From Clostridia bacterium (GTDB taxonomy: Bacteria > Bacillota > Clostridia > UMGS1810): 64,000 bases of DNA. Shown one piece after another: positions 2,107 to 39,811 of this stretch. Both the position numbers and the translations under genes were made by a program. The stretch is taken from NCBI GenBank assembly GCA_017502845.1, contig JAFVUE010000003.1:52025-116024 (forward strand). The letters run 5' to 3'. The notes beneath the pieces were generated by a model, which was given only the letters and a program-made list of their open reading frames with translations, searched no databases and had not been told where the DNA came from. Numbering within the stretch: the first letter of the stretch is position 1; each line of letters begins with the position of its first letter.

Positions 2107-2280
2107 GGTTCGTCGGAAACCGCCGAACCCTACGATAACTCTATTATAGCTAGTGCGATTGTAGGGAACGGATTGATCCGTTCCGAATAATATTGTACAA
2201 GAACATAACGGGAGGGATTAATCCCTCCCCTACGATATCTCTATTACCGGCAGGTCGTAGGGGACATTCACGAATGTCCC
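2107..2280. repeat. GTAGGG-anchored hairpin array 1 (4 units, mixed orientation)
   Basis: Units are ggttcgtcggaaaccgccgaaccctac (2107-2133, inverted), gtagggaacggattgatccgttcc (2161-2184), ggagggattaatccctcccctac (2211-2233, inverted) and gtaggggacattcacgaatgtccc (2257-2280). Confidence 0.8.
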
Positions 2281-2325
2281 GCTAACTCCCATGCACTACG
2301 TCACGAATAATAGAAAAACAAAAAA

Positions 2326-2387
2326 GTACCTACGGCAAGTGCAAGGGTTCAGAATAATCCTAGCCCAGTCACAAGTACCGTAGGTAC
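2326..2387. repeat. 10-bp perfect inverted repeat GTACCTACGG / CCGTAGGTAC flanking a 42-nt loop
   Basis: Read directly; contains a GTAGG core; function unknown. Confidence 0.5.
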
Positions 2388-2431
2388 AATAGAAAATATA
2401 CCATATTTATTCAATATTGTCAACGTTTTAC

Positions 2432-2466
2432 ACAAAAAGGTTGCAGTGGATTTCGCTGCAACCTTT
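2432..2466 (-). terminator. Rho-independent terminator of the seven-gene operon
   Basis: Stem aaggttgcag / ctgcaacctt with a 9-nt loop, followed by a T-run on the minus strand, 14 nt after the stop at 2480. Confidence 0.75.
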
Positions 2467-2479
2467 TAATTTTTTACTC

Positions 2480-3613
2480 TCAGTTTTTCTCCATTACATC
2501 CTGCATAAAGTAACCCTTGTGGCCGGTATCAGCACACCACTTACATGCAGTCCATACGATTTCTTTGAATTCGGGGATATAGTTCACATAGTCCTCATAG
2601 AAGTACTGCTCGTGAATCATAATCTCAACGCAACCGAAGTTACCGTCCTTTGCTTTAACTTCTTCAAGCTTGGGAACGATCTCCTCCAACGGATAAGAGT
2701 TAAGTACGAGGTCAATCTTACCGCAAAGGATATCTTCTTCTGTATCCATCCAGAAATCACGTGTATCAATATGCTCAATAAGATATTCGGGATAATGATA
2801 ACTTACAAATGGTTTTCCCTCTCTCAAGTAGAAGTAACCGTACAAGCCACGTGTTCCCAGATTGCTCATAGCGCGTACGCCGTCCAATGTGCACTCGCCC
2901 CAGTGGATTGTTGTGTTATGTTTGCTGAGCGTTTCCTCACCTGCGAAACGGATAACCTCACGGTAGATTTTCTTTGCATCTTCTGTGATAGTTTTCATAT
3001 CTGTAAACTCATAAGGTTTGCAAGTCTGGGGTTCTCTCGCATGGAAAGAGAGACGGAGCCAGTTGGAGTTTGCAATAAATTCGTCTTTGAATTTATCTGT
3101 CATCATAGAAAGATTAAAATCTTTTCTTGTGGGATCGCTGAAATACGGGTTGTCTGCTTCATACTCCCAATGGATATTGAGCTGAACAGTTGCACCGAAA
3201 TCGTCGTGTGCTTTCTTGTACATCGCAAGATAGGGGTTATCAAAGATAGATGTGTATGTATCTTTGTGGTCATTGATATCCTGCAGGAAAAGGATGTTGT
3301 CATCAGATGACAAACGATATATACCTGTGGGGTTTATGAGTTTGTAAACCACGATTTTTTCCTCGTTGCCGTCTTTGTCTTTTGCAACAAGGTTTGTGCG
3401 GTATGCATCAAATGGCATCTCCACTTCAAAGCATTCGCCGTTCCATGTTGCAGGAATCTGGTTTACTTCGATTGCACTGTCCTTGTCGGCTTCAACCTTT
3501 ACCTTAACCCACAGAGCACCGTCTTTTTCAACGCCGTCATAGATATTAAGGCAATCTCCGTCAATCGGGAAAGCGAAACGAATCTTGTTGCCACGTCTTA
3601 AATAGTCTCTCAT
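2480..3613 (-). CDS. Cytoplasmic protein: ~110-aa N-terminal beta-rich extension plus a ~265-aa domain homologous to the four tandem paralogs at 45171-48988 (uncharacterised family; deacetylase/hydrolase-like barrel is only a guess)
   Basis: Motifs shared with the paralogs: SDDN/IDDN, IFDxPY, QLN, NSxWLxLxxH, EVIRFAGE, HW, HEQYFxxxYVNYxP. There is no signal peptide. The start is moved to ATG 3613 (GGAGGA 8 nt upstream), because the ORF-track ATG at 3628 overlaps that RBS. Confidence 0.75.
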   Translation of the reverse strand: MRDYLRRGNKIRFAFPIDGDCLNIYDGVEKDGALWVKVKVEADKDSAIEVNQIPATWNGECFEVEMPFDAYRTNLVAKDKDGNEEKIVVYKLINPTGIYRLSSDDNILFLQDINDHKDTYTSIFDNPYLAMYKKAHDDFGATVQLNIHWEYEADNPYFSDPTRKDFNLSMMTDKFKDEFIANSNWLRLSFHAREPQTCKPYEFTDMKTITEDAKKIYREVIRFAGEETLSKHNTTIHWGECTLDGVRAMSNLGTRGLYGYFYLREGKPFVSYHYPEYLIEHIDTRDFWMDTEEDILCGKIDLVLNSYPLEEIVPKLEEVKAKDGNFGCVEIMIHEQYFYEDYVNYIPEFKEIVWTACKWCADTGHKGYFMQDVMEKN

Positions 3614-3654
3614 AATTATATCCTCCATTCTGCTTTTATAGCAGTATAATTACA

Positions 3655-6558: not shown

Positions 6559-6625
6559 GGTTTTCTCCTGTTAAACGAAAGCAGGTATAACCGCCGCACA
6601 TCTGCAGCAGTTATACCAATAAATA

Positions 6626-20664: not shown

Positions 20665-21054
20665 GTAGGGGACGATGCCCACATCGTCCCGCAATGGTTT
20701 TTCCTCGCAGATAAAGGTTGTTGGAATACGCATATAACGGGACATTCGTCGTGTACCCGTTTAGGGTGGAATGTCCCCTACAGGTTAAACACATGGAGCG
20801 CGCACCGTAGGGGACGGCGTCCTCGACGTCCCGTAATGTTTTTCTCAAAATATATGTAGCGCAGACATCCACGCCGATTACATCGGCTACACCTCATCCG
20901 AGTTGCTTCGCAACCCACCTTCCCCTTGCACCCACAGGGCACAGGCGGGGAAGACATATGTGGTGCACACCGTAGGGGCGACCAGCGGTCGTCCGCATGA
21001 CAACCACAAAACATATGTAGTGCGCATTGTAGGGGACGATGCCCACATCGTCCC
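20665..21054. repeat. GTAGGG-anchored hairpin array 2 (5 units plus one unrelated GC hairpin at 20919-20953)
   Basis: Units at 20665-20690, 20739-20781 (inverted, enlarged loop), 20807-20832, 20972-20995 and 21029-21054. Confidence 0.85.
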
Positions 21055-21091
21055 GTATATACAATTTCCGGCAAACATTTTCCACACACGC

Positions 21092-21125
21092 AAAAAAGCA
21101 AGAGGAAAAATTCCTCTTGCTTTTT
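21092..21125 (-). terminator. Rho-independent terminator of the 21152-23392 gene (A/T runs on both sides)
   Basis: aaaaaagcaagagg aaaaatt cctcttgcttttt. The same hairpin recurs at 36430-36460 and, split, at 31072-31316. Confidence 0.85.
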
Positions 21126-21151: not shown

Positions 21152-23392
21152 TTAGTTGATTTCAAATACCTCTGTGATAGGTGCAATGGTATCCCAAGCC
21201 CATACAAAGATCTTTTCTGCAGGTTTTGCAAATTTGATAAATTTGTATTCAGCTTCACTTGCTGCTGCATCAAACTTATTGATATTTACAGAACCATCTG
21301 CTGCGATGGCTACAACTGCCATATCAGCAACTTTTTCTGCGGCTGTCATGTTTTCGAGAACAAGACCGATACCGTTTGCAGAATCATTTACAAATGCATC
21401 AGTTGTTTTTGCTTCAAGACCATCAGCATAAGTTGCGAAGCGGAAGTTATCTATAGAGTTTGTAACTCTCAGATAAGCATCGCTGTAGCATGCTGTACCT
21501 GATGCCTGAGGCCAGAAGATATAATCTACATCGCGGGATGCTGTATTGTCGGTGTAAGCACTACCGGAAGCAACGAGCGCACCGTCCAGATAGAGGTACA
21601 TCTTGTTGTTATCAGTATCTACTACTGTCTTGTAGTTGTGCCACTCGCCCATATCAACATCCATGGTTTTAACAGTACTTGTGATACCGCTTGATTTTTT
21701 CACATAATCAGTTCTCAGTTCAAGCAGACCTGTAGTGCCATTATACTGGAAGGGAGAAAGACTTTCTCTTATATAGTTTGTTTCATCAGCATAGTAAGTC
21801 ATCCAGAGAGCCATAATTGGCATAGCGGAAATACCGCTTACATTACTCTTGGGATGAACGAGAGTTCTTACTGCCTGTGCGTCAGCAATATCAGCTTCGG
21901 CAAGAACATCGCCTGTAGCAGAGTCGATAGCATAGTAGTTATCATAACGATAATCTACGCTTACCTCAACCATACCGCTTACATCCTTAGAAGTTGATAT
22001 GAAGTTTATACGGCCGGCATTACCTGCGCCGTCGAAGCCGGAAGATGCTGCGATACCCCATGAAGTAGCAGTCAGGTAAGTATTACCGTTTTCCTGAACT
22101 TCCTCAAAGCCAAGAGCTATCACGCTATCATCCCAGTTGGGGTTCACACCAGTAAATTTTCTGGAACCAACAGGCCATTGGGTTGTAGCATCTTCTTCTG
22201 TATACTTATCTTCTTCCCATGTGGCAGATGCTGCAATTGTTTCTTCTCCTACGGGAGTAAGGCGGTAATATACAACTTCTTCACTTGTCCATGCAGTATT
22301 ACCTGCTGCTGTTACGATAGCAACAGAAACAGCGGAATATCCTTCAGGAAGAGTGATTGAAGCAAAACCGTCTGCAGTTGCAATGTCAGAGGGAACACCG
22401 TTTACATAAGCAACAGCTTTCTCACCGGGAGCAATACCGCGGATATTTACGCCAACTTTATCGCCATATACATCACCTGCGGGTGCGAGGAAGTCAACAT
22501 CAGTATATGTTACGAAGTTTGCTTCAAAGTTCTTTCTGTAAACACCTGTGTTAGCAGTTACTACTCCATCCGTAAGAGTAACATCAGTGCTGAGGTGTGC
22601 CTGGATGCTGTCCTTTGACCATGTTGCGTGTTTTCTGTCTTTAAGAACGAGAACATCATCAACATACATATCATACACACCTGTGTCGATATCTGTTATT
22701 ACCATTCTTACATTATACCACTTGTTAGCAACAAATCTGAAACTGTCATAAAGCTGACCGTCAGAACCCTGACTCAGGCCGATTGTTCCGTTTGCATTAA
22801 CTCTGAAATTGTTGTGAAGCCATCCGCCACAGTACAAAGAGAGAACTGTTTCGGCTGAAAGTGCGCCATCAAAGTAAATGTCTGTTTTGTACTCAAATGT
22901 CTCTCCTGCAGCAGGAGCACCGATACCCCAACGGCCGGAAACAGTTCCCTGCCAGGTATCTGTTACGCCGCCGATTGCTCCGTCAACTGCAATACCCTTA
23001 CCGGCGTGTTTCTGGGAGAGGATATCCTCGTCTGCCACTTTGTTCCATACAGTGCCGATACCTTTACCATTCAATACAACGGGAGCACTGGTATTTGTAC
23101 CGTCAGAAACTGTGAATGAGTTTTTGCCGGAAACAACAGGAAGTGCAACTACACTGCCGTCATCATTCATAGCTTCAGCTGCTACAGCAACACCGTTGTT
23201 GTAGTATGTGAGTTCTGCACCTGCAGGAGCAGCTACATTGAAAAGAACTTTTGTACCTGCTACAGCAATGTCGCCTTCAGCAAAAGTCATAACAGTAGAA
23301 AGTGTAATTTCAGATGAATCAGCAAATGCTACTGTTGTCATGGCACTCATAACAAGGAGCACAGACAAAAGAATTGATAAAAATCTTTTCAT
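21152..23392 (-). CDS. Secreted (Ig-like + LamG-like)x2 protein with conserved C-terminal ~60-aa domain; paralog of 31338-33836 and 36483-39191
   Basis: Signal peptide MKRFLSILLSVLLVMSAMTTVAFA. LamG-like cores NKWYNVRMVITDIDTGVYDMYVDDVLV and GEWHNYKTVVDTDNNKMYLYLDGALV. C-terminus ...EKIFVWAWDTIAPITEVFEIN. The start is ATG 23392 or 23398. Confidence 0.75.
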   Translation of the reverse strand: MKRFLSILLSVLLVMSAMTTVAFADSSEITLSTVMTFAEGDIAVAGTKVLFNVAAPAGAELTYYNNGVAVAAEAMNDDGSVVALPVVSGKNSFTVSDGTNTSAPVVLNGKGIGTVWNKVADEDILSQKHAGKGIAVDGAIGGVTDTWQGTVSGRWGIGAPAAGETFEYKTDIYFDGALSAETVLSLYCGGWLHNNFRVNANGTIGLSQGSDGQLYDSFRFVANKWYNVRMVITDIDTGVYDMYVDDVLVLKDRKHATWSKDSIQAHLSTDVTLTDGVVTANTGVYRKNFEANFVTYTDVDFLAPAGDVYGDKVGVNIRGIAPGEKAVAYVNGVPSDIATADGFASITLPEGYSAVSVAIVTAAGNTAWTSEEVVYYRLTPVGEETIAASATWEEDKYTEEDATTQWPVGSRKFTGVNPNWDDSVIALGFEEVQENGNTYLTATSWGIAASSGFDGAGNAGRINFISTSKDVSGMVEVSVDYRYDNYYAIDSATGDVLAEADIADAQAVRTLVHPKSNVSGISAMPIMALWMTYYADETNYIRESLSPFQYNGTTGLLELRTDYVKKSSGITSTVKTMDVDMGEWHNYKTVVDTDNNKMYLYLDGALVASGSAYTDNTASRDVDYIFWPQASGTACYSDAYLRVTNSIDNFRFATYADGLEAKTTDAFVNDSANGIGLVLENMTAAEKVADMAVVAIAADGSVNINKFDAAASEAEYKFIKFAKPAEKIFVWAWDTIAPITEVFEIN

Positions 23393-24048
23393 CGTCATCT
23401 TTTCCTTTCTAAATTTTTTGTCTTTTTTCTGCATACAGTGGCGAAATCCTGAATGCACCGATTCTCTGTTCGTACCAAACAGAGCACGGGATGAGCCAAT
23501 ACAAAAGTATCACTCGATTATACAGCACACAAATTCCGCATATGCCATCCGCACACATCATTTCAAAAAAGGACATACGTGGATTTAATACACCGAACAG
23601 TTTACCGCATAACTTTTGCACTACATACACAAGTACCCTATATACCCAATATATCGGAAAGAGGAAGACTTTGTTGTCTTATCCGATACACTCATCTGCA
23701 TACAAGTGCAGTGTTTTTTGAAATTTAAGTTTTTCTGTTTTCGATATGTACGGGTTAAGTACATATACGAACTTTTGGTTTCGGGCGGCGAAATGCCCTA
23801 TACCGAACACATATAAAGTCAGATTCAGTATATGTGAACTTTTCGGGATACATCTGCCATGCAACGCTATATGACGGAGAGTCTGCCCCATCGGGAGAAC
23901 GGGCATATTTCCGTTTTTTGTACGGTGCAAAAACAAATATATCGCCTTTTATATCTCAACCGCCTGACACAGTGCTATCGGGAGTAAACAAAGTGTTTTA
24001 GCGGAGGATATCAAAAGTAAATAAAAAATACAACGTGCGAACATCATC

Positions 24049-24193
24049 GGAACGTCGACAAGCGCCGTTCCCTACGACGGTTGAACATAAATAGTGCGCA
24101 TCGTAGGGGCGACCAGTGGTCGTCCGTATCATACACCACAAAACATATGTAGTGCGCATCGTAGGGTGTGGCGGTTTCCGACACACCGCAAGG
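24049..24193. repeat. GTAGGG-anchored hairpin array 3 (3 units)
   Basis: Units at 24049-24075 (inverted GGAACG...CGTTCCCTAC), 24103-24126 and 24161-24193, followed by the bridge motif tttcctcgaagataagg. Confidence 0.85.
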
Positions 24194-24431
24194 GTTTTTC
24201 CTCGAAGATAAGGTTGTGCGAACATTAACGGAATACATTACTAATCTTAAAATCCCGCGCACAACCGCAAGGTTAGAAAACCCAAAATTCCACCAATCAG
24301 TCAACCAACAGTTGGCGTAATTCTTTTCATAGGCAACCTTGCCGGACAATTGAACTATCAACTGTCCGGCACGGAGATTAAATATTTAATTGAAACATAC
24401 TGCCGTAAAGACGCTAACAGAAGAGAAACTT

Positions 24432-28331: not shown

Positions 28332-30593
28332 ATGTTCAAAAAACTTTCTGACAATTTCAAAAGAAGAAGCTTTCTCTTCAAATATATATCCGTTATGTTT
28401 GTGATTATGCTTATACCTACATTTTTCGGATATGCCGTTTCGGAAATGTCCCTCCAGGCAACCATTGCCGAAATAAAAAAAGAAAACTACAAATCCACTG
28501 CGCACATACAGCGTAGTATGGATTCCAGTTTTACAACCATAAAACAGACTGCCATTGACATTGCCTCCGGAGAAAGTCTTGCCGCTTATGCTAACGCCCC
28601 TTCGTCTTATACAGGTTACGATCTGACCCAGGAATCTTTCTTCCCCCACACAGCCATGATGCGCAATTACGTTGACGGTGTAATTATATATAATGAAGAA
28701 ACAGGAACAATAATAAACGATTACATGGCTATTTACTCTGCGGAGAATTATCTTGATTGGGTTCTTGATCTTCACGGACAAGACAGGGATGAATTTTTAA
28801 GAATAATAAATACTCCCTCATTCAATAAATTATATCCAGCCAAGAACATCAAAACATACAACCAACTGATAAACAAGCCGTTGGTTTTCCACACACAATC
28901 CTACCCCTTTATGGGCGAACACAAGGGTACGGTTATTACCATTGTTGATGTAGAAGACATGCTCTACGATTTTTCCGACAGGATTTCAGAGGACAGTTGC
29001 TTTTATATCGTTGACGAAAACGGACAGATTATTATCTCCACAGGAAATACACAATATATAGGCAACGAACTTTTTTCCGCTGAAGAGGGCTACGGCGAAT
29101 CTCGCATAAATGGCGAGAAAGTTATGTACAGCGTTCGCGATTCCACGTACGGAAAATTCAAATACGTATTTGTGGAAAATTTTAATTCCATAAACAGTGC
29201 AGTTGCACCTGTGCGAACTGCTTTAACTCTTTACGTTATACTTATATTGATATTCGGCTCTCTGGCTATATATTATATTGGTAAGAAAAATACTCAACCC
29301 GTCCGCGAACTCTCCGGTATGCTCGGTGCAAATAAGGAAAGTGATACGGATGACGAATTCGAAAATATCCAGAGTGCCATCCGCAGCATCTTAAGCGAAA
29401 AAGCACGTATGGAACCACTTATTGCAGAAAGCGGTTCTGCACTCAGGAAAATCCTTATTTCAAACATTCTGCGCGGAAACTTTTTGTCAGCCGACCAGAT
29501 TGAAGAGGCATGTGAAAAAGCAGAAGTTTCTTTCCTTCACGACAATTTCTGTGTCATATATTTCAATCTTATAGAGATTGAACAGGAGGATATTCCCGTT
29601 ATCAAATACGCTATATCCAATATCGTAACGGAACTTTTTGCTTCTGTTGGTGAAGTGTTTACAGACGATTTTGAACTTCATTCCATGGTTGGTATACTGA
29701 ATCTTGAAAACTCAACAACAGAGATAGAATTGCAGATATTGTCGCAACTCAGTTTTATAAGAAACTTCTTTATTGACAACTTTGAAACGGTTATCAACAT
29801 CGGCGTGGGCAATATCTTAAGCAGCGCAGAGCAGATTTCTGTTTCTTATTCCCAGGCAAAAGAAGCCGCTGAATACTGCGCACTTACGGGTTCAAAGGAG
29901 GTTTTCTCCTACTCCAATATCAAAATCGCCGATTACCGCTATGCTTATCCCCTTGAGGTGGAAGACAAACTTAACAGCGCAGTTATTAACGGCGATATTG
30001 AACTTGTTCGACAGTTGCTCGACCAGGTTATTGATGCAAACGCTTCACTATCTCTTGATATGAGCAGGTGCCTGTTCTTTGACCTTACGGCTACGGCGCT
30101 CAAGATCATGTCTAATAAAACCATCAACCTCTCCGCTGTATTCGGCAGCGCAAATTCACCTTTTGAGAAGTTGATGGAGTGCAAAAATATCAGCGAACTG
30201 GTTGACACCATTCACGCTATATTTGATAAGATTTGTTCACAGATTACGGAATCCCATGGTGCGAAGAAAGAAAAACTGAAGATAGCGGTTACTGATTATA
30301 TTAAAGATAATTACAGCAACCCAACTATGTCCCTGGGTACTCTTGCAGATGAATTCGACATGAATTATACGTATATGTCCCATTTCTTCAAAGATTATAT
30401 CGGTGCTAATTTCGTGGATTATATTTCTGAAATCCGCGTTAAAAAAGCAGCAGAACTCTTGAGAACCACCGATATGCAGATTAACGATATTGCAACGGCT
30501 GTCGGATATGCCAACGCCACGGTGCTGATTAAGATATTCAAGAAGATTACAAAAACCACTCCGGGTAATTACAGAAAAAATTCAAGAGGATAA
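28332..30593 (+). CDS. Membrane-anchored AraC-family transcriptional regulator with extracytoplasmic sensor-like region between two TM segments
   Basis: C-terminal HTH_AraC segment LGTLADEFDMNYTYMSHFFKDYIGANFVDYISEIRVKKAAELLRTTDMQINDIATAVGYANATVLIKIFKK. TM segments are near residues 15-35 and ~300. The start is moved to ATG 28332 (GGAGGGA RBS), downstream of the promoter that lies inside the ORF-track extension. Confidence 0.8.
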   Translation: MFKKLSDNFKRRSFLFKYISVMFVIMLIPTFFGYAVSEMSLQATIAEIKKENYKSTAHIQRSMDSSFTTIKQTAIDIASGESLAAYANAPSSYTGYDLTQESFFPHTAMMRNYVDGVIIYNEETGTIINDYMAIYSAENYLDWVLDLHGQDRDEFLRIINTPSFNKLYPAKNIKTYNQLINKPLVFHTQSYPFMGEHKGTVITIVDVEDMLYDFSDRISEDSCFYIVDENGQIIISTGNTQYIGNELFSAEEGYGESRINGEKVMYSVRDSTYGKFKYVFVENFNSINSAVAPVRTALTLYVILILIFGSLAIYYIGKKNTQPVRELSGMLGANKESDTDDEFENIQSAIRSILSEKARMEPLIAESGSALRKILISNILRGNFLSADQIEEACEKAEVSFLHDNFCVIYFNLIEIEQEDIPVIKYAISNIVTELFASVGEVFTDDFELHSMVGILNLENSTTEIELQILSQLSFIRNFFIDNFETVINIGVGNILSSAEQISVSYSQAKEAAEYCALTGSKEVFSYSNIKIADYRYAYPLEVEDKLNSAVINGDIELVRQLLDQVIDANASLSLDMSRCLFFDLTATALKIMSNKTINLSAVFGSANSPFEKLMECKNISELVDTIHAIFDKICSQITESHGAKKEKLKIAVTDYIKDNYSNPTMSLGTLADEFDMNYTYMSHFFKDYIGANFVDYISEIRVKKAAELLRTTDMQINDIATAVGYANATVLIKIFKKITKTTPGNYRKNSRG

Positions 30594-30605
30594 TAAAACA
30601 TTAAA

Positions 30606-30634
30606 ACGGCTATGCATTATGCATAGCCGTTTTT
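30606..30634 (+). terminator. Rho-independent terminator of the AraC-family gene
   Basis: Hairpin acggctatgca ttat gcatagccgt followed by tttt. Confidence 0.8.
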
Positions 30635-30647
30635 GTGTGTACACATT

Positions 30648-31033
30648 GTAGGGTGTGGCGGTTCCCGACACACCGCAAGGGGTTTCCTTCGCAGATAAGG
30701 CAATGCAACCATCAACGGAACGTCGACAAGCGCCGTTCCCTACAACCGTTGAATATATGCAGTGCGCAACGTAGGGGCGACCAGCGGTCGTCCGTATCGT
30801 ACACCGCAAACATAAATAGTGCACATCGTAGGGGCGACCAGCGGTCGTCCGTATCGTACACCACAAACATAAATAGTGTGCATCGTAGGGTGTGGCGGTT
30901 TCCGACACACCGCAAGGGATTTCCTCGCAGATAAAGGTTGTTGGAATATGCATACAACGGGACATTCATGAATTCCCCATACAGGTTAAATATATGTAGT
31001 GCGTATTGTAGGGTACGGCGTCCTCGACGTCCC
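30648..31033. repeat. GTAGGG-anchored hairpin array 4 (7 units including two inverted doublets and a tandem 57-nt duplication)
   Basis: Units at 30648-30680, 30717-30743 (inverted), 30771-30794, 30828-30851, 30885-30917, 30959-30982 (inverted, degenerate) and 31008-31033. Confidence 0.85.
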
Positions 31034-31091
31034 GCCCATACAATTCCTTTCAAACATTTTCCACATCACGCAAAAAAGCAAGAGGAAAAAT

Positions 31092-31299
31092 ACGGTGCCT
31101 TCACATAGGGAATATTCGCCTTAAAACTTTATGAGAAGAACATAAAGTTTTGAGGTACAGCGCAGTTTTGAAAGAGAAATTTTGTCGTAAATAGGAATAA
31201 GAAAAAATCCCGTTATACTTTCGTATTACGGGATTTTTTATGAACTATTTACGGTAAATTGCCTTCCAAAACCGTTTCTTCTCTATGTGAAGGCACCGT
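31092..31299. mobile_element. 208-bp non-coding MITE-like element with 17-bp perfect terminal inverted repeats, inserted in the loop of the cassette terminator
   Basis: TIRs are ACGGTGCCTTCACATAG (31092-31108) and CTATGTGAAGGCACCGT (31283-31299). Internal hairpins lie at 31123-31151 and 31202-31239 (terminator-like). Intact empty-site homologs of the flanks occur at 21092-21125 and 36430-36460. Confidence 0.75.
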
Positions 31300-31337
31300 T
31301 AGTCTTGCTTTTTTAATTAACTATTCGTAATTATTGA

Positions 31338-33836
31338 TTATTCAATAACATCAACGATAGGAGCAAGCGTTGCCCAATCCCATACGAATACTTTTTCGAT
31401 ATCTGCCATATCGAATGCAAATGCTTTGTAAGCAGATTCGCTTGTTACGTCTTCGTATTTCTGGATTTCAACTGCACCTGCAGCTGTGCGAGCAACTACT
31501 GCGATATCCATTACTTCGCTCTCTGCAAGACCGAGGTTTGCAGGAACGATAGCGAGTGATGCACCACTTGCTGTGATTGCAGCATTTACAACTGCTTCTG
31601 TAGGAGCATCTGCAAATGAACCAATCTCAGCGAGGTATACGTTATCGAAGCCCCATGTTACCTGATGGTTAGCACCTGTAAAGGGATCAATTATACCATT
31701 GTATGTTCTGGGCGCACCTATAGCAGCATACTCCAAGCTTGTGATAGTGTCAACTGTTTTGTCTGCTTTCTGGAAGATATAACCACTCTGAACAAACTCA
31801 CCATCAAAGTAGATATAAGCTGTGTTGCTTTCTATATCAAGGATTGCCTTGTAATTGTGCCAATCATAGAAATCAGCATCGATAACAGCTTTCTTTGTAG
31901 TACCGTCGAGGTTTCGTGTCTGTGCCTGAAGTTCCTGACCGTAACGGGGGATACCGAACAATGAAACCTGCTCTCTGAATGTAGAACCGTCAGTGTATGT
32001 ACCTCTAACAAAGATGTTCATAAACTGACCTTCAGCAGTACCTGTGAAGTAAGAATATGTTGTCTGATCTTCGGGTTTGCCTTCAACTCTCATATCAGCG
32101 CTGAACTCAACAGCTCCGAGACCGGATGCTGTACTGGGAGCGTTCATTGCACCACCGGCTTCTGTGTTTGTTACAGCCATATATTTGCCTGTGTTACCAC
32201 CTGCAGTTTTGTACTCAACATAAGCACTTTCGCTGTAATCATAATGCTTGAGCTCCTCAGCAACATCGTCTTCAAAGCTATCATTTGTGAGAACTTCTAC
32301 TTCGCCTGCAGCTTCAAGACCGAAGATGAAGTATTCGTCAGAAACGAGTTCGTCACCTTCATATACTGCGACATCGCCATTAGCATCAACGATTTCAAAT
32401 CTGATTGAGTTGTAACCTGCTGCCAGAGGAGCATTATAGTTGTAAGCGCCATCTACGAGTGTGATAGGTGTCTTAACGCCATTTACATTAGCAACTGCTT
32501 TGCAACCTGCAGGGATGTTTGCTGCATTTACAGCAATCTGCATCTTTGTACCTGCGGGGAGAGTTGTCTCTGCGATAGCATTTGTTGCAAAAATAGCAGG
32601 CTCTGTGGGAGCAAAATCGTCATATACATCGGCCATAAAGTTGTCAACTGATGTGTATGTTCTAACTTTTCTAGGGTTGTAAGCTGTAGTCTTACCAACG
32701 CTCATGTTTTCGATAGAAGTAACTACAGCAGGAACCCATTTGTTCTTATCGGGATCACCGTCAGCTCTTGTAAGCTGGAAGCCGGCAATACAACCTGAAC
32801 CAACATAGATATCGTTGATATAACCGTATATTTTGTTGTTGGGCATATCGAAGATAACGCTGTAGTTGTTCCAGTCATCGTTGTAGTTATCAACAGTGAA
32901 TTTTACAGGAGTACCATCTGCAGCATAAGCAGTAAATGTGGGTTTACCTGTGTTTGTTGCGATTTCCCAGTAGTTAAGAGATCTTCTGTTCACCTCTGCT
33001 GTGTCGCCATCGTTATCAACGTCATAAGTATCAACGGATCTTGTGTAAGAACCTAAGATATTACCGTTTCTTGTTGTTGCAACGCCTGCATCACCAATAG
33101 CCATTGCTTTGAAACCGTCAGCTGTGCCTGCATCAATTGTGTTTACAACTGCGCCTGTATCATCAACGATTTCAGCATAGTCAGCACGCCAGTCAACGCT
33201 GAGCTTTACGATACCTGTGTAGCCACCCAAATTAGTACAAAATTCTGTGTTAGCACCTGCCTTCTTTGTGTAACCTTCAGCGGAGTTGGGGTCAGCTATC
33301 GCACCACCCCAGCCGATAAGCTGAACGTGAGTGTTTGTGCCTTCTGTAACTACATTAACATCGCGGGGAATCACACCGGGTGCATCATACCATGTGTTCT
33401 TCATACCTACGTCGTTGTAGCCGAATTTGTTACCAAGTTCGCCCGTAGCGTCGGGTTCGAATGTGGTGTCGATCACGTGCTGACCTGCACCGAGGTAAGA
33501 AAGACCGAATACTTTGATTGTTGCTGTCTGAGCAACAACTGTGTCGCCGTTCTTTACTGCAACGGAGATGTTGTTGTCACCTGCAGGAACTGTTACTGCA
33601 TAGTAACCGTCTGCTTTGGTAAGAGGAGCTGCTACACCATTGATTGTAGCAACTACTGTGTTACCCTCTGCAACATCACCTGTGTTTACGATGATCTTGG
33701 AACCAGCGGGAAGCTGTGCAAGATATTCACCGAAAGTGATAGTTGCGGGTGCAGCTGCTTCGTCAGCGAAAGCAACTGTTACCATACTGCTCATAACGAG
33801 TAATGCGCAGAGCAGCATTGATAAAATTTTCTTCAT
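31338..33836 (-). CDS. Secreted (Ig-like + LamG-like)x2 protein, paralog of 21152-23392 and 36483-39191
   Basis: Signal peptide MKKILSMLLCALLVMSSMVTVAFA. Cores DWNNYSVIFDMPNNKIYGYINDIYVGSG and DWHNYKAILDIESNTAYIYFDGEFVQSG. C-terminus ...EKVFVWDWATLAPIVDVIE. The start is moved to ATG 33836, because the ATG at 33845 sits 1 nt from the GAAAGGG RBS. Confidence 0.75.
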   Translation of the reverse strand: MKKILSMLLCALLVMSSMVTVAFADEAAAPATITFGEYLAQLPAGSKIIVNTGDVAEGNTVVATINGVAAPLTKADGYYAVTVPAGDNNISVAVKNGDTVVAQTATIKVFGLSYLGAGQHVIDTTFEPDATGELGNKFGYNDVGMKNTWYDAPGVIPRDVNVVTEGTNTHVQLIGWGGAIADPNSAEGYTKKAGANTEFCTNLGGYTGIVKLSVDWRADYAEIVDDTGAVVNTIDAGTADGFKAMAIGDAGVATTRNGNILGSYTRSVDTYDVDNDGDTAEVNRRSLNYWEIATNTGKPTFTAYAADGTPVKFTVDNYNDDWNNYSVIFDMPNNKIYGYINDIYVGSGCIAGFQLTRADGDPDKNKWVPAVVTSIENMSVGKTTAYNPRKVRTYTSVDNFMADVYDDFAPTEPAIFATNAIAETTLPAGTKMQIAVNAANIPAGCKAVANVNGVKTPITLVDGAYNYNAPLAAGYNSIRFEIVDANGDVAVYEGDELVSDEYFIFGLEAAGEVEVLTNDSFEDDVAEELKHYDYSESAYVEYKTAGGNTGKYMAVTNTEAGGAMNAPSTASGLGAVEFSADMRVEGKPEDQTTYSYFTGTAEGQFMNIFVRGTYTDGSTFREQVSLFGIPRYGQELQAQTRNLDGTTKKAVIDADFYDWHNYKAILDIESNTAYIYFDGEFVQSGYIFQKADKTVDTITSLEYAAIGAPRTYNGIIDPFTGANHQVTWGFDNVYLAEIGSFADAPTEAVVNAAITASGASLAIVPANLGLAESEVMDIAVVARTAAGAVEIQKYEDVTSESAYKAFAFDMADIEKVFVWDWATLAPIVDVIE

Positions 33837-33906
33837 TTTTATCATACCCTTTCTAAAAATAATTACTTAAGGTAATGGGCACATACGGACACAATACCAT
33901 ACTAAA

Positions 33907-34140: not shown

Positions 34141-34351
34141 GTAGGGTGTGGCGATTTCCGACACACCGCAAGGGATTTCCTCGCAGATAAGGCAATTCAA
34201 CCATCAACGGAACGTCGACAAGCGCCGTTCCCTACAACCGTTAAACATATGTAGTGCGCATCGTAGGGGACGGCGTCCTCGACGTCCCGCAATGTTTTCC
34301 CTCAAAACATATGTAGTGCGCATTGTAGGGTGGGCGTAGCAGATCTACACC
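34141..34351. repeat. GTAGGG-anchored hairpin array 5 (4 units)
   Basis: Units at 34141-34173, 34209-34235 (inverted), 34263-34288 and 34325-34351. Confidence 0.85.
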
Positions 34352-34370: not shown

Positions 34371-34398
34371 ACAAAAAGGTGTCTCTAAAAGAGACACC
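34371..34398 (-). terminator. Rho-independent terminator of the tandem-AbrB gene
   Basis: Stem ggtgtctc / gagacacc with loop taaaa, followed by a T-run on the minus strand. Confidence 0.75.
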
Positions 34399-34421
34399 CG
34401 AAAATTCAATATCCGACTATA

Positions 34422-35034: not shown

Positions 35035-35055
35035 CAAACTTTCTTCCTAAATCGC

Positions 35056-35502
35056 TTAAAGACCTAACAACTTCTTAACTGTTACATTAACAGCACCGCC
35101 GTCTGCTCTGCCGGTAATCTTCGGCATAACATCAGCCATAATCTTGCCCATATCTTTCATAGAAGTTGCGCCGAGTCGATCGATTGCTTCTTTAACAATC
35201 CCGTCTAATTCCTCCTGCGTTAATTGGGAAGGAAGATACCCAGTTAATACTTCGATTTCTCTCTTAAGCTCTGCGATCAGCTCATCACGGCCGCTCTTTT
35301 CATATTCGGGCAAAACGTCTTTACGTTTCTTGACTTCTTTAGCGATAACACCGATAACACCGTCATCATCAAGAGTGGTTTTAGAATCTTTCTCCACCTG
35401 AAGTACGGCGGCACGAACACTCTGAACAGCGTTCTTGCGGATGGTGTCCTTGTCCTTCATGGACTCTTTCAAATCCTGTGCAAGTTGTTCTTTCAAACTC
35501 AT
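35056..35502 (-). CDS. yqeY: GatB/YqeY domain-containing protein
   Basis: 148 aa, MSLKEQLAQDLKESMKDKDTIRKNAVQSVRAAVLQ..., in the typical position directly after rpsU. Confidence 0.85.
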   Translation of the reverse strand: MSLKEQLAQDLKESMKDKDTIRKNAVQSVRAAVLQVEKDSKTTLDDDGVIGVIAKEVKKRKDVLPEYEKSGRDELIAELKREIEVLTGYLPSQLTQEELDGIVKEAIDRLGATSMKDMGKIMADVMPKITGRADGGAVNVTVKKLLGL

Positions 35503-35524
35503 TGTTGCACCTTCTCAATATCGA

Positions 35525-35701
35525 TTATTTATAAGATCTTTTTCTTGCTGCTTCTGACTTCTTCTTGCGTTTTACGCTGGGCTTCTCATAGTGTTCTCTT
35601 TTTCTGAGTTCTGACAAAACACCGGCTTTCGCACACTGACGCTTAAATCTACGAAGCGCACTATCTAAAGACTCATTGTCCTTAATTCTGATTTCTGACA
35701 C
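35525..35701 (-). CDS. rpsU: 30S ribosomal protein S21
   Basis: (V)[57 protein letters not shown] start at 35701 with a GGAGGGAGGGA RBS; the ORF-track extension to 35770 is rejected. Confidence 0.9.
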
Positions 35702-35901
35702 AAAAATCCCTCCCTCCGATATTGCAATTAGCGAAAATCGCTCCAATAATGGGATTAGACAAAATTGCACTTTATTATTATACTATTAAAAGTCAATATT
35801 GTCAACACTTATTTATAAAGAATATTCAATTAGTTGCAAGGGAGGTCTCCGTGCCAGCCCGAATGGAAATCCCCCGCAGATAAGGAGGTGCGGACATGAG
35901 C

Positions 35902-36404
35902 GGACAGTCGAGGACGCCTGTCCCTACAACGGTTGAACATAAATAGTGCGCATTGTAGGGTGTGGCGGTTTCCAACACACCGCAAAGATTTCCTCGCAGA
36001 TAAGACAATGCAACCATCAACGGAACGTCGACAAGCGCCGTTCCCTACAACCGTTAAATATATGTAGTGCGCATTTGTAGGGGATAATGCCCACATCGTC
36101 CCGCAATGGTTTTCTCAAAACATAGGTAGTGCACAACGTTGGGGCGACCAGCGGTCGTCCGTATCGTACACCACAAACATAAATAGTGTGCATCGTAGGG
36201 TGTGGCGGTTTCCGACACACCGCAAGGGGTTTCCTTCGCATATAAAGGTTGTTGGAATATGCATACAACGGGACATTCATGAATGTCCCCTACGGGTAAA
36301 TATATCCAGAGCACCTTTGTAGGGGACGGCGTCCTCGACGTCCCGTAATGTTTTTCTACAAAACATGTGTAGTACACATCGTAGGGAATGGATTTATCCA
36401 TTCC
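35902..36404. repeat. GTAGGG-anchored hairpin array 6 (9 units), colinear with array 4 over its gene-proximal part
   Basis: Units at 35902-35927 (inverted), 35955-35987, 36022-36048 (inverted), 36077-36102, 36138-36161 (GTTGGG variant), 36195-36227, 36270-36293 (inverted), 36319-36344 and 36381-36404. Confidence 0.85.
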
Positions 36405-36429
36405 GTTATTTAATCCAACCAAAAAAAGA

Positions 36430-36460
36430 AAAAGCAAGAGGAAAAATCCTCTTGCTTTTT
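36430..36460 (-). terminator. Rho-independent terminator of the 36483-39191 gene (same hairpin as 21092-21125)
   Basis: aaaagcaagagg aaaaat cctcttgcttttt. Confidence 0.85.
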
Positions 36461-36482
36461 ATTCACTTTGAATTATTACAGA

Positions 36483-39191
36483 TTACTCAATAACTGCGAT
36501 ATTCTTCAATGTATCCCAGTTCCATACGAACACTTTGTCTATGCCTTCCATTTCAAAGCCGAATGCTTTGTAAGAAGATTCCGCTGTTACATCTTCGTAT
36601 TTCTGCATCTCGATTTCACCGGATGCTGCACGTGCGATAACAGCGATTGTCATAACCGCATCTTCAGCAAGACCGAGGTTTGCAGGAATGATACCGAGTG
36701 TAGCACCTTCTGCTGTGATAGCAGCATTGATAATTGCTTCTGTGGGAGCATCGCCAACGCCATAACTTACCACTTTCCAGTTATCAAAGTTTGCTGTTAT
36801 ACGTTTGCTGTATGTCCAGTTACCTGTTGCCGCCTCTGTATCAGCTGCATACTGACGTGCGTTGATTACGTGAGGCCAGAGGAACTCTGTAACATCTGTT
36901 GTAGATGTTTTGTAAGTACCTAATGAACCCTGAGCAACGAGAACATCGTCTACAAGGAGATATATCTCATCTTCTACAATATCAATAATTGCACGGTAGT
37001 TATGCCACTCACCGGGGTTAACATCAACTACTGTGGGAACAGCAGTTGTGCCATTAAATGTGTTAGCATAAACTTTACCCTGGTTATTTATACCGAAGAG
37101 TGTTTTTGTACCTCTGAGACCTGAATAGTCGCTGTCCCATACGAGCTGAGTATCCATAATGTTCCACTCTGCCCATCTCCACTCATTCTTAATGTCTTCA
37201 GAAGATGTGATAACTGTTGTCTTTTCAAGTACACCTGTTGTAACAGTTGTAGTTTCAATCTTTTCTGCACGGTAATCAATGCTCATATCAAAGAAACGAT
37301 CAACAGTTGCGCTTCCTGTGTCGCCACTGCGGTAACTTGATACGAATACAGGACCTGCACCGTCTTTTCTTGCAGCAGAGGGGTTTGTTGTGTATACAGG
37401 GTCTGCATATTTACTACCCCATGATGTGATTGTGAAGTACTTATCATCTGTACCTGCTACATTAACTTTGTTTGAAGCACCTGCTACTGATTTATATGCT
37501 GCATAATCAGTATGTGTAAAGTATTCTGTTGAACCGATACCTACAGCAGCAAAGAGTGCATTATACCCTCTCAATGTGTCTCCGGAAGATGCGCTGTATT
37601 CAGCATATGTGGGGAAATCAGTTGCAGCATTGAAATCATGTCTTGTTGTTACATCGCCCTCGGGAGCAAATGCATAATATGCCCACTCATCTGATTTAAC
37701 TTCATTGCCGTCGCTGTCTACAACAATATTGCCGTCAGCATCTACCATAGCAACATAAATGCTTGTGTAACCTGCCGCCAGAGGAGTATTGTAATTGTAT
37801 GTAACGCCTGTAGCAGTAAGGTCGCATCTTACGCCATTTACAAATGCAGCAACTGCACCGCCTGCAGGAATATTTGCTGCAACTGCAGAAAGCTGAAGTT
37901 TTGAACCGGCGGGAAGAACTTCTGCTGTAGTACCGTTAGTTACTTCAACAGTGGGCTCAGTAGAAGCAAAGCCGTTTGCATAAACATCTACAATAAAGTC
38001 ATCTGCAGAAGCGTATGCAACAACATCTGTGCTGTTGTAAGGTCTTAAGTTTTTAATATAAGGCCATGTTGCTGCTCTGGGTTCAACGAGAAGTGTCTGA
38101 CCTTCTTTTTCATGACCTGTTGCATATTTAACACCTGCAAGGTGGCCTGAAGCAACAAAGATATCATTGATATAACCGTAAACTGTATCGTTGGGGATAT
38201 CAATTATAACTTTGTAATTGTTCCATCCGGCATTGAAGTTGTCAATAAGAACTGTTTTTGCAGAACCGTCTGCATTGTATGCAGTAAACTGGGGTTTACC
38301 CTGTGTAAGGTTAAGTGTCCAGTATGAGAATCCAACTCTTTCTTCGCCTGTATCGTTACCGTTATCATAGTCAGTCGGATCGGAGAAAAGATACTGAACT
38401 GTAAGCACCTGACAGTCAGCGAGAGTTGCAGTGCCATTATCAGCAGTTCTTGCTGCTTTGATCTCATCAGGAGTTGTCATAGTAAATGTCTGTGTTGTAG
38501 CACCTGTTTCGGGATCAATAACATCTACCTTATCAAAACGATAGTCAACGCTGATTTCAGCAACATTGTTAAGTTTTCCGGAGTCTACTGCTGATGCGAG
38601 CTGTGTACCGCCGCCGTTTACTACTTTTGTGTAGCCCTCGCCTGTATGGGGGTCAGAAGCAGCAGTACCCCATGTGAAGATGGAAAGGTACTGATTACCT
38701 TCTTCGTTTGCAATAGCAACTCTGGGAGATGTAATATTGAGGTTGCCATCGTACCACGCTTTGTTCATACCAAAATCGTAGTAACCTAATTTGTTACCAA
38801 CTTCTCCTGTGGTATCCGTTTCCCATGTTGTTTCCTGTGTGCGTTCTGCTTCGCCCATATAAGAAACGCCAAACACTTTTATTGTTTCTGTCTGTGCTAC
38901 AACTGCATCGCCGTTCTTAACTGCAACGGAGATAGAGTTATCACCTGCAGGAACTGTTACTGCATAGTAACCGTCTGTGAGAACAAGCGTTCTCTCAGAG
39001 CCGTTGATTGTAGCAACAACTGTATTACCCTCGGCAACATCGCCTGTGTTTACGATGATCTTGGAACCAGCGGGAAGTTTTGCAAGATACTCACCGAAAG
39101 TAATAACTTCAGGTGTATCAGCAAAAGCAACAGTTGCCATGGAACTCATTATGAGTAATGAGCAGAGTAATAATGACAATACTTTTTTCAT
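36483..39191 (-). CDS. Secreted (Ig-like + LamG-like)x2 protein, largest paralog of the cassette family
   Basis: Signal peptide MKKVLSLLLCSLLIMSSMATVAFA. Cores GWNNYKVIIDIPNDTVYGYINDIFVASG and GEWHNYRAIIDIVEDEIYLLVDDVLVAQGS. C-terminus ...DKVFVWNWDTLKNIAVIE. Confidence 0.75.
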   Translation of the reverse strand: MKKVLSLLLCSLLIMSSMATVAFADTPEVITFGEYLAKLPAGSKIIVNTGDVAEGNTVVATINGSERTLVLTDGYYAVTVPAGDNSISVAVKNGDAVVAQTETIKVFGVSYMGEAERTQETTWETDTTGEVGNKLGYYDFGMNKAWYDGNLNITSPRVAIANEEGNQYLSIFTWGTAASDPHTGEGYTKVVNGGGTQLASAVDSGKLNNVAEISVDYRFDKVDVIDPETGATTQTFTMTTPDEIKAARTADNGTATLADCQVLTVQYLFSDPTDYDNGNDTGEERVGFSYWTLNLTQGKPQFTAYNADGSAKTVLIDNFNAGWNNYKVIIDIPNDTVYGYINDIFVASGHLAGVKYATGHEKEGQTLLVEPRAATWPYIKNLRPYNSTDVVAYASADDFIVDVYANGFASTEPTVEVTNGTTAEVLPAGSKLQLSAVAANIPAGGAVAAFVNGVRCDLTATGVTYNYNTPLAAGYTSIYVAMVDADGNIVVDSDGNEVKSDEWAYYAFAPEGDVTTRHDFNAATDFPTYAEYSASSGDTLRGYNALFAAVGIGSTEYFTHTDYAAYKSVAGASNKVNVAGTDDKYFTITSWGSKYADPVYTTNPSAARKDGAGPVFVSSYRSGDTGSATVDRFFDMSIDYRAEKIETTTVTTGVLEKTTVITSSEDIKNEWRWAEWNIMDTQLVWDSDYSGLRGTKTLFGINNQGKVYANTFNGTTAVPTVVDVNPGEWHNYRAIIDIVEDEIYLLVDDVLVAQGSLGTYKTSTTDVTEFLWPHVINARQYAADTEAATGNWTYSKRITANFDNWKVVSYGVGDAPTEAIINAAITAEGATLGIIPANLGLAEDAVMTIAVIARAASGEIEMQKYEDVTAESSYKAFGFEMEGIDKVFVWNWDTLKNIAVIE

Positions 39192-39258
39192 TTCTTTCCA
39201 TACCCTTTCGTAAAAAATATAATGTCTTTAAGCACAAAAATGCTTATATCATAGTTCT

Positions 39259-39288
39259 ATTTTACACCTATATAACAGTGGGTGTCAA
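39259..39288 (-). promoter_or_regulatory. Candidate promoter of the 36483-39191 gene (TTGACA-18-TAAAAT)
   Basis: Minus-strand reading; -35 at 39283-39288, -10 at 39259-39264. Confidence 0.45.
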
Positions 39289-39453
39289 CGATAAAAAGAT
39301 ACCTCTGTAATCATTTTGTAACATTGCTCAAAATTGAGATTTTAATATATACAATTTGTACAAAATCGGGTTGTCGTTTTTTGTAAAATTCATAGCCGGA
39401 TGTGATAATATTTCATATGTCGTTCCTCGCAGGTAATGCAGTGCAAACCTAAC

Positions 39454-39811
39454 GGAACGTCGACAAGCGCCGTTCCCTACGATTCCCCCTATTTGAGTTA
39501 GTGCACATTGTAGGGTGTGGCGGTTCCCGACACACCGCAAAGATTTCCTTGCAGATAATGTTGTGCGAACATAACGGGACATTCGTAAATGTCCCCTACG
39601 GTTAAACAATGTTAGTGTAAACAATCACAATCCCTCCGCCACCTTACGGTGGTCCCCCTCTCCGACTTTGCATGTATAAGTTCCACCATGCCAAATCAAA
39701 GATTTGGGGTGTCACTTACCTCTACACGAGGGAGGCATACAGTTGAGCATAGGTGGTGCGGATATAACAGAACGGATACCCATACTGGGCACGCGTAAAT
39801 CCGTTCCCTAC
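39454..39811. repeat. GTAGGG-anchored hairpin array 7 (4 units) plus a block of other GC palindromes (39630-39769)
   Basis: Units at 39454-39480 (inverted), 39510-39542, 39576-39599 (inverted) and 39770-39811 (inverted, long loop). Confidence 0.8.

Follow-up and report, generated by a model that had tools for sequence, protein, structure and literature searches.

The stretch of 64,000 nucleotides from the Clostridia bacterium contig JAFVUE010000003.1 analysed here (hereafter the window) carries 36 short hairpins that begin with GTAG and are gathered in seven intergenic arrays. These hairpins belong to the known class of repetitive extragenic palindromes (REPs) and bacterial interspersed mosaic elements (BIMEs) and are not a new kind of system. 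In detail, they are probably GTAG-tagged REPs in BIME-like arrays, seeded by a REP-associated tyrosine transposase (RAYT, or TnpA-REP) and reshaped by recombination. An earlier examination of the letters alone (the sequence-only reading) had called them REP-like and drawn the analogy with RAYT systems. This interpretation is supported by the layout of the units, their compensated stems, their extragenic bias and the RAYT genes of the clade.

The hexamer GTAGGG is found 43 times on the two strands of the window, against 15.4 ± 4.0 expected from dinucleotide shuffles (maximum 25; none of 100 shuffles reached 43), and 32 of the 43 occurrences are in the seven arrays. Reading of the sequence and an anchored hairpin finder gave exactly the 36 units counted before, and every subtype and coordinate then listed proved correct. 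The units are distributed in arrays A (2107-2280, four units), B (20665-21054, five), C (24049-24187, three), D (30648-31033, seven), E (34141-34351, four), F (35902-36404, nine) and G (39454-39811, four). The anchor GTAGGG is perfect in 32 units, and four are decayed: 30960 (GTAT and an indel), 31008 (a stem mutation), 36077 (stem mutations) and 36139 (GTTG).

The units share one plan, namely an unpaired 5′ GTAG, a G+C-rich hairpin whose stem starts with GG, a loop, a closing CC and then a G, in agreement with the 5′ GTAG and imperfect palindrome described earlier. As in the REP superfamily, the window units are palindromes of 20-40 nt with an unpaired terminal GTAG. In class I, a 6-bp stem is followed by a G.A mismatch, an inner stem of 2-3 bp (CGG/CCG or CG/CG) and a loop of 3-5 nt, for instance GTAG GGTGTG G CGG ttt CCG A CACACC. 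The hairpin once drawn with an 11-nt loop stands, but the loop itself does not, being composed of the mismatch, the inner stem and the smaller loop. The remaining units have perfect stems of 8-9 bp and loops of 3-4 nt, with the exception of two units with a 21-nt loop. In single-strand DNA folding, the expected hairpin is the minimum-energy structure (z -2.7 to -4.9). The same array sequence is present in independent assemblies, that is, in contig L002 (100% identical) and in L121 from another strain, therefore the arrays are not an assembly artefact.

The family extends to other Clostridia. A pattern scan with one genome per species (GTAGGGNNNNGCGRTTYCCRANNNNCCGC, eight stem positions free) matched at least 114 loci in about 65 assemblies, mostly from animal guts, and those among the matches listed are all metagenome-assembled genomes (MAGs) of Clostridia. 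Their labels include Oscillospiraceae, Acutalibacteraceae, "Ruminococcus sp.", Eubacteriales, Congzhengia, Ructibacterium, Feifaniaceae and Ornithomonoglobus. The compensatory stem changes suspected within the window are evident on this scale: all four free pairs are Watson-Crick in 101 of the 116 matches listed (0.4% by chance), which comprise at least 11 distinct stems. In 51 distinct units, 92.8% of the cells are paired and three pairs show 17-28 double-sided changes. The covariation score is 0.367 compared with 0.124 in shuffles (0 of 500 reached 0.367), and slid controls score much below this. The loop and the inner stem are the parts best conserved across species, and the outer stem is variable.

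The 815 kb of related loci, taken from the same pattern loci, contain 268 units of GTAGGG plus hairpin, against 7 in shuffled sequence and 6-16 with permuted anchors. In 247 of these 268 units, the stem has a G after it. Under a relaxed loop rule, 249 of 283 units are placed in the 19% outside long open reading frames (ORFs), so the extragenic bias predicted for the family is present there too. Apart from the REP units themselves, the related loci showed no nucleotide match to the window. In the MAG SIG575, at least 50 units occur in 13 loci of 8 kb, and inverted doublets with spacers of 24-25 nt recur in both orientations. For the source genome, 75 kb hold the 36 units of the window and two more in the 6.3 kb upstream; the adjoining DNA was read from ENA scaffold XIEF21-1_SAMN15830033_METAG-scaffold_134, where window position 1 is scaffold position 62485.

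The genes of the window are nearly all on the minus strand. Their products include S-layer homology domains, an AbrB/MazE-type protein, YqeY and ABC permeases, which fit a Firmicute, in this case an uncultured bacterium of the gut. An origin in the Bacteroidetes, considered because of the base composition, was rejected on the grounds of these domains and of the name "Clostridia bacterium" borne by an NCBI MAG with identical proteins. The intergenic bias first noticed by eye holds here, with 31 of the 32 strictly defined units in the 15% of the window outside ORFs of at least 130 aa and with none of the 27 units of arrays A and D-G overlapping a gene call of the source pipeline. Five arrays (B, D, E, F and G) begin 15-40 nt past a strong intrinsic terminator and end before the next promoter-like site, and array A is located 155 nt beyond a terminator read by eye. 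Since the arrays lie between a terminator and the next promoter, they are outside the transcription units.

Within the arrays, alternating or tandem units are joined by three conserved linker types which depend on the orientation of their neighbors, and this is the layout of BIMEs. A plus unit followed by a minus unit has a linker of 39-48 nt (e.g., GCAAGGGATTTCCTCGCAGATAAGGCAATGCAACCATCAAC), the reverse order one of 25-29 nt (e.g., AACCGTTGAACATAAATAGTGCGCATC), and two plus units one of 33-36 nt (e.g., GTATCGTACACCACAAACATAAATAGTGTGCATC). The left flank previously reported for the forward units (CATAWRTAGTGYRCAWY) was recovered in 10 copies with at most four substitutions and in about five more diverged ones, all on the plus strand; it is the 3′ part of the last two linker types. 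Doublets with outward GTAG and spacers of 39-48 nt recur six times in the window. Their GTAG and CTAC ends can pair and close a larger structure (fold z -2.1 to -5.4).

RAYT-like HUH/Tyr enzymes are encoded in the clade that carries the repeats. Relatives had been proposed as the place to look for them, and with E. coli RayT as the query, 12 ORFs of about 165 aa were found among the at least 114 loci. Their proteins match the NCBIfam family REP_Tyr_transpos with E of about 1e-15. A profile of 40 homologues had a single match among PDB sequences, namely 4ER8, the E. coli TnpA-REP (E 4.8e-7). Similarly, the best Foldseek match of an AlphaFold model (mean predicted local distance difference test, pLDDT, 82.7) is 4er8_A (E 4e-8, TM 0.61), followed by the ISDra2, IS608 and IS200 transposases. 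The histidines of HuH and the Tyr of Y-I-x-x-N-P are invariant. Two types are distinguished by their motifs, NHFH/NHIH, WQ and YIDTN(V/P) in type I and DHIH, FQ and YIENNP in type II. Queries with two RAYT lineages gave 2,194 and 2,686 database matches, and some homologues bear the JGI name "REP element-mobilizing transposase RayT".

The RAYT genes carry GTAG hairpins in frame, at two fixed, inverted sites which flank the HuH motif. The encoded peptides are IVG-x-GDFD-y-P (site 1) and G-x-SETA-y-PY (site 2) for type I, and VGDDAHIVP (site 1) and G-x-MWAS-y-PT (site 2) for type II. The residues x and y are specified by reverse-complement codon pairs. For instance, site 2 of type I has A/A in 95 cases, L/K in 8, S/E in 7, V/T in 2 and T/V in 1, site 1 of the same type has C/A, C/T, G/A, D/V, F/E, Y/V and R/A, and site 2 of type II has S/T, P/A, T/S and A/P. 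Pairing is therefore preserved at the expense of amino-acid changes. Both hairpin-encoded segments are missing from E. coli RayT, and in the model they are located in the turn of a beta-hairpin and in a disordered loop.

Units of the window are identical to these in-gene hairpins: GTAGGGGACGATGCCCACATCGTCCC is the site 1 hairpin of type II, GTAGGGTGTGGCGGTTTCCGACACACC is the site 2 hairpin of P0073 and P0052, and GTAGGGGACGGCGTCCTCGACGTCCC is the site 1 hairpin of L138, L144, L145 and L169. Identical units of 26-27 nt occur in genomes of 30-62% G+C. In a further sample of 80 RAYT loci from metagenomes, internal hairpins were found in 67 (site 1 in 57, site 2 in 55, both in 47), with 65 distinct sequences. 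Within a single gene, the two hairpins have the same sequence in 22 cases and show at most 3 nt of difference in 21. Units within 400 nt outside the gene accompany 39 of the 80 loci, and 34 of the 102 extragenic units have an identical counterpart inside the RAYT gene of their own locus; L010 and L126 illustrate in detail a RAYT gene with its cognate REPs. The identity of in-gene and extragenic hairpins ties the hairpin class to the RAYT lineage. A stricter rule, namely that the internal stem is always the commonest extragenic stem of the genome, was rejected: it is often true in the wider metagenome sample and fails for type I in JAZNOA01, JAZQJX01 and JAZQUU01.

Some RAYT genes have two or three tandem in-frame units at one site, such as ...VGDDARIVPKIPRCNVGDDAYIVPKISRYNVGDDAHIVP... 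(P0052 / L127:459-977 and several type II homologues), therefore the number of units also varies within the gene.

In the mechanism proposed, a RAYT encoded elsewhere in the source genome would bind the hairpin in single-stranded DNA and read its GTAG. It may then cut and rejoin DNA, by analogy with the E. coli TnpA-REP in vitro, of which 4ER8 shows the complex with a REP hairpin, and would thereby seed units or doublets into intergenic DNA. The arrays would subsequently grow, shrink and homogenise as units are duplicated and recombine with one another. The presence of several hairpin classes in the window may reflect several RAYT lineages, existing or former. The position of the arrays just past terminators is most likely due to insertions being harmless there. 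Uses by the host, such as binding of nucleoid proteins, insulation or recombination sites, are candidate roles only.

A number of points weigh against this explanation. The window has no ORF that resembles a Y1 transposase, as the sequence-only reading had stated, and no RAYT was found in the 6.3 kb upstream or the 4.7 kb downstream, so that for the source genome the enzyme is a predicted one. The proteins of the relatives score 56.5-57.7 bits with NF047646, below the cut-off of 80, which makes them relatives of RayT and not equivalogs, and their Pfam Y1_Tnp match is weak (20, cut-off 23). In the few MAGs with both, the internal stem of type I (mostly GGTGCG) is often unlike the commonest extragenic stem; the match of RAYT and hairpin thus holds for the hairpin class and not for the exact sequence. 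Among the strains compared, there is no clean pair of a filled and an empty site, and the sole indel, bounded by direct repeats, could be the product of recombination rather than of transposition. Part of the resemblance of arrays to one another is due to block copying or gene conversion. Finally, in vivo mobilisation of REPs by a RAYT is not known to have been demonstrated for any organism.

Spread of the arrays only by segmental duplication, unequal crossing-over and gene conversion, with no dedicated enzyme and with hairpins that persist as recombination-prone palindromes, is improbable, although several observations agree with it. Arrays D and F have in common a multi-unit block of 400 nt with 87.5% identity, and the genes which adjoin them are paralogous with a protein identity of only 42%. 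It follows that copying or homogenisation has recently affected whole blocks, and that the units do not stand for 36 independent events. Arrays B, D and F follow three paralogous genes with a common terminator, and array D contains tandem repeats of 57 nt. Over 4.7 kb of ribosomal-protein genes, the strain contig L121, from another sample, has 93.5% identity with the window. Its array G has an extra block of 118 nt next to 39576-39599, composed of a linker, a GGAATGGA unit, a linker and a GGGAGATT unit. Direct repeats lie at the borders of this indel, therefore it is evidence that units are gained or lost but not of the mechanism. Where the window continues into a promoter, L121 has additional units, and synteny is lost from this point.

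On the contrary, recombination on its own leaves unexplained the invariant unpaired GTAG next to freely varying and compensated stems, the identical short units in genomes of such different G+C content, and the tight tie to RAYT genes with the same hairpins. The paralogous genes beside the arrays are also far more diverged than the arrays themselves.

A role of the hairpins in RNA, where they would serve as 3′ stabilisers, sites of processing, backup terminators or insulators and be maintained by selection on RNA structure, is very unlikely. Pairing is indeed conserved with occasional G.T pairs, and the position at the 3′ ends of genes resembles that of E. coli REPs, which can stabilise the upstream mRNA (PMC3733652). 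However, little transcription is expected past the strong terminators which precede five of the seven arrays, and both orientations of the units occur within one array. The units lack the T-run which follows the hairpin of an intrinsic terminator, and a terminator scan flagged only 2 of the 36, weakly. An Rfam search gave no relevant family match at gathering or E-value thresholds, and the unpaired GTAG is the signature of a DNA enzyme. That the arrays are decayed fragments of RAYT genes would agree with the identity of window units to in-frame segments of these genes, but it is scarcely credible and was rejected, since tblastn of five RAYT proteins against the window returned only the peptides of about 10 aa encoded by the hairpins, with no HuH or Tyr region and no linker match. 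The arrays also differ from CRISPR arrays, in that the "repeats" vary, the "spacers" are conserved linkers and the orientation alternates.

The reading as RAYT-seeded REPs in BIME-like arrays can be compared with what is described for the GTAG-tagged REP superfamily. Its members form sub-families with complementary stems, clusters, and head-head, tail-tail and head-tail dimers, and they flank RAYT genes (PMC3733652). They have been placed in Proteobacteria, Cyanobacteria, Chloroflexi and the Planctomycetes-Verrucomicrobia-Chlamydiae (PVC) group (Di Nocera et al. 2013, PMC3733652). The units studied here likewise form sub-families with complementary stems and are mainly extragenic, between unidirectional or convergent genes. 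In the literature searched, no mention of GTAG REPs in Firmicutes was found. The impression that the family lacked a formal description also holds for the literature searched, where no REPs or REPINs (inverted REP pairs) of Clostridia were found.

Similarly to the REPs and BIMEs of E. coli, the units have an unpaired 5′ GTAG and an imperfect G+C-rich hairpin, in some cases with an internal mismatch, and they alternate in orientation, use few conserved linkers and are extragenic at the 3′ ends of genes. They differ in the Clostridia host, in the many more stem variants per genome and in the position of the window arrays beyond terminators and not before them. The enzymes share the HUH/Tyr fold with E. 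coli TnpA-REP (RayT, subclass 2.2; 4ER8), which is the top match in sequence and in fold. On the contrary, the Clostridia proteins are only about 22-27% identical to it, fall below the equivalog cut-off and are encoded by genes with in-frame REPs.

In-frame REPs in tnpA-REP are the hallmark of subclass 2.4, or Bertels Group 4 (Quentin et al. 2018, PMC6006769). This subclass has the motifs NH[IFV]H, WQ and YIxNNP and is reported from Cyanobacteria, Bacteroidetes and "various phyla" (PMC6006769); Bertels et al. 2017 refer to Clostridia in connection with Group 1 only (PMC5581495). The Clostridia genes resemble subclass 2.4 in their in-frame REPs, their low copy number, the GTAG feet and the G-C pairs at the base of the stem. 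As to the motifs, type I proteins fit those of the subclass, and type II proteins have DHIH and FQ in place of NH[IFV]H and WQ, so that subclass 2.4 is a candidate assignment. Clostridia are not named among the taxa of the subclass as published. Moreover, the published insertions are generally between HuH and Y, whereas two fixed sites flank HuH here, one of them before HuH in the beta1-alphaA hairpin.

Inverted REP pairs with a short spacer, which recur as units in both orientations clearly in SIG575 and partly in the window, resemble the REPINs of Pseudomonas (Bertels and Rainey 2011, PMC3116915). Unlike these, the doublets have partners with different stems, and those of the window are embedded in longer mosaics. 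The IS200/IS605 elements (IS608 and ISDra2) have the same enzyme fold and recognise small single-stranded DNA hairpins. However, they are autonomous and multi-copy, their subterminal hairpins all have one orientation and their motif is Y...Q, whereas the RAYT gene clusters are mostly limited to one contig each, have the Y-I-x-x-N-P motif and are accompanied by hairpins dispersed alone. BOX, RUP and SPRITE of Streptococcus and STAR of Staphylococcus are other short intergenic repeats of Gram-positive genomes. We know of no GTAG-tagged hairpin or Y1 transposase partner in any of them, and they are unrelated in sequence and in presumed mechanism. The host range in Clostridia, the second fixed site before HuH, the covariation at codon level and the many enzyme-hairpin pairs appear to go beyond the published description.

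Table 1. Units of the seven arrays and the features next to or between them, in window coordinates.
Feature	Position	Strand	Stem, loop and remarks
Array A unit, class I	2107-2133	-	GTAG GGTTCG g-cgg-ttt-ccg-a CGAACC
Array A unit, 8-bp stem	2161-2184	+	GGAACGGA ttga TCCGTTCC
Array A unit	2210-2233	-	GGGAGGGA ttaa TCCCTCCC
Array A unit	2257-2280	+	GGGACATT cacg AATGTCCC
Array B unit, class II	20665-20690	+	GGGACGATG ccca CATCGTCCC; identical to in-frame site 1 hairpin (VGDDAHIVP) of type II RAYT genes
Array B unit, 21-nt loop	20739-20781	-	GGGACATTC ... GAATGTCCC; fold less clear, z -1.8
Array B unit	20807-20832	+	GGGACG g-cg-tcct-cg-a CGTCCC; 100% identical to internal site 1 hairpin of RAYT loci L138, L144, L145, L169
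139-nt block without GTAG hairpin inside array B	20833-20971		holds 37-nt motif of a different repeat
Array B unit	20972-20994	+	GGGCGACC agc GGTCGTCC; one G.T pair
Array B unit, class II	21029-21054	+	GGGACGATG ccca CATCGTCCC
Intrinsic terminator of 768-aa gene	21093-21125	-	array B starts 39 nt past it
Array C unit, class I	24049-24075	-	GGAACG g-cg-cttgt-cg-a CGTTCC
Array C unit	24103-24125	+	GGGCGACC agt GGTCGTCC
Array C unit, class I	24161-24187	+	GGTGTG gcggtttccga CACACC; 27-mer identical to site 2 hairpin (GVSETATPY) of RAYT genes P0073/L126, P0052/L127
Terminator after AraC-type gene	30603-30633	+	array D starts 15 nt past it
Array D unit, class I	30648-30674	+	GGTGTG
Array D unit, class I	30717-30743	-	GGAACG; outward-GTAG doublet with 30648, 42-nt linker
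Array D unit	30771-30793	+	GGGCGACC
Array D unit	30828-30850	+	GGGCGACC; tandem copy, 57-nt period
Array D unit, class I	30885-30911	+	GGTGTG
Array D unit, decayed GGGACATT	30960-30982	-	GTAT anchor, indel
Array D unit, mutated GGGACG/gcgtcctcga	31008-31033	+	
Array E unit, class I	34141-34167	+	GGTGTG
Array E unit, class I	34209-34235	-	GGAACG
Array E unit	34263-34288	+	GGGACG gcgtcctcga
Array E unit, degenerate	34325-34351	+	GTAGGGTGGGCGTAGCAGATCTACACC
Terminator of AbrB/MazE-type gene	34377-34399	-	array E starts 26 nt past it
Array F unit	35902-35927	-	GGACAG gcgtcctcga CTGTCC
Array F unit, class I	35955-35981	+	GGTGTG
Array F unit, class I	36022-36048	-	GGAACG
Array F unit, mutated class II	36077-36102	+	GGGATAATGcccaCATCGTCCC
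Array F unit, GGGCGACC	36139-36161	+	anchor mutated to GTTG
Array F unit, class I	36195-36221	+	GGTGTG
Array F unit	36270-36293	-	GGGACATT catg AATGTCCC; doublet with 36195, fold z -5.4
Array F unit	36319-36344	+	GGGACG gcgtcctcga
Array F unit	36381-36404	+	GGAATGGA ttta TCCATTCC
Terminator of 902-aa gene	36429-36460	-	array F starts 25 nt past it
Array G unit, class I	39454-39480	-	GGAACG
Array G unit, class I	39510-39536	+	GGTGTG
Array G unit	39576-39599	-	GGGACATT tacg AATGTCCC; extra 118-nt two-unit block directly adjoining in strain L121
169-nt block without GTAG hairpin inside array G	39600-39768		near-invariant between two strains
Array G unit, 21-nt loop	39769-39811	-	GGAACGGAT ... ATCCGTTC
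rplL terminator	39828-39859	-	array G starts 17 nt past it

Of the two blocks without GTAG hairpins, the one of array G shows one mismatch in about 220 nt compared with L121, whose genes are 93.5% identical to those of the window; it has no Rfam match and no significant fold on either strand. The one of array B contains the 37-nt motif CACCTCATCCGAGTTGCTTCGCAACCCACCTTCCCC, which is 97-100% identical in three other Clostridia MAGs (L007:7249-7285, L013:930-966 and L061:1038-1074). There, the hairpin CCTTCCCCtcaaGGGGAAGG is placed after the motif and GATGAGGTGTAG about 50 nt upstream. This is a second family of dispersed repeats. An inverted repeat of 10 bp with arms about 43 nt apart (GTACCTACGG ... 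CCGTAGGTAC, 2326-2390), located between array A and the upstream gene's terminator, contains GTAGG and may be a decayed long-loop unit.

Three distant paralogues on the minus strand (21152-23458, 31338-33845 and 36483-39191), share 27-42% protein identity and have no clear assignment in Pfam; after each of them come the same terminator sequence and a REP array. A copy of the terminator (AAAAAGCAAGAGGAAAAAT..CCTCTTGCTTTTT) is split by an insertion of about 220 nt (31084-31300) with 17-nt terminal inverted repeats (ACGGTGCCTTCACATAG / CTATGTGAAGGCACCGT), which looks like a miniature inverted-repeat transposable element; the terminator is intact at 21093-21125 and 36429-36460. A partial match of 28 nt to this insertion is located at 49078-49105. 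Elsewhere in the window, a tmRNA gene (62708-63059, plus strand) and a ribosomal protein L10 leader (41014-41158, minus strand) exceed their Rfam gathering scores.

Short contigs of the same species begin or end in arrays: L002 starts at 34263, L130 ends at the unit 2107-2133, and L123 is a further case. The repeats therefore fragment assemblies, as is expected of true multi-copy repeats. The arrays also produce stop-free frames of 105-127 aa on the minus strand (20778-21101, 24044-24361, 30582-30965 and 36054-36437), and a "gene" of 167 aa was called inside an array at L121:4623-5126; all of these are repeat artefacts.

In this large clade of RAYT genes, the inverted pair of in-gene hairpins may itself be a selected working part and not merely tolerated ballast, either a master copy which seeds or corrects the extragenic REPs and doublets, or an operator by which the enzyme senses its own gene. 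We regard this as a tentative idea with less than even chances. It draws on the conservation of the two sites (57 and 55 of the 80 loci), the pairing of the codons, the 65 hairpins and the frequent identity with extragenic units. If it is true, enzyme and substrate would co-evolve, being one piece of DNA, and the arrays of mixed classes in the window would be a record of several RAYT lineages, present or past.

The REPs and BIMEs of the GTAG type, together with their RAYT partners, are apparently extended by these results to Clostridia that live in animal guts. With 65 different hairpins at the two fixed sites within the genes, dozens of natural enzyme-hairpin pairs are available for the study of substrate choice by RAYTs. 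Such arrays interrupt metagenome assemblies and give rise to false ORFs of 100-170 aa, and knowledge of the repeat family should aid the assembly, annotation and strain typing of Clostridia MAGs.

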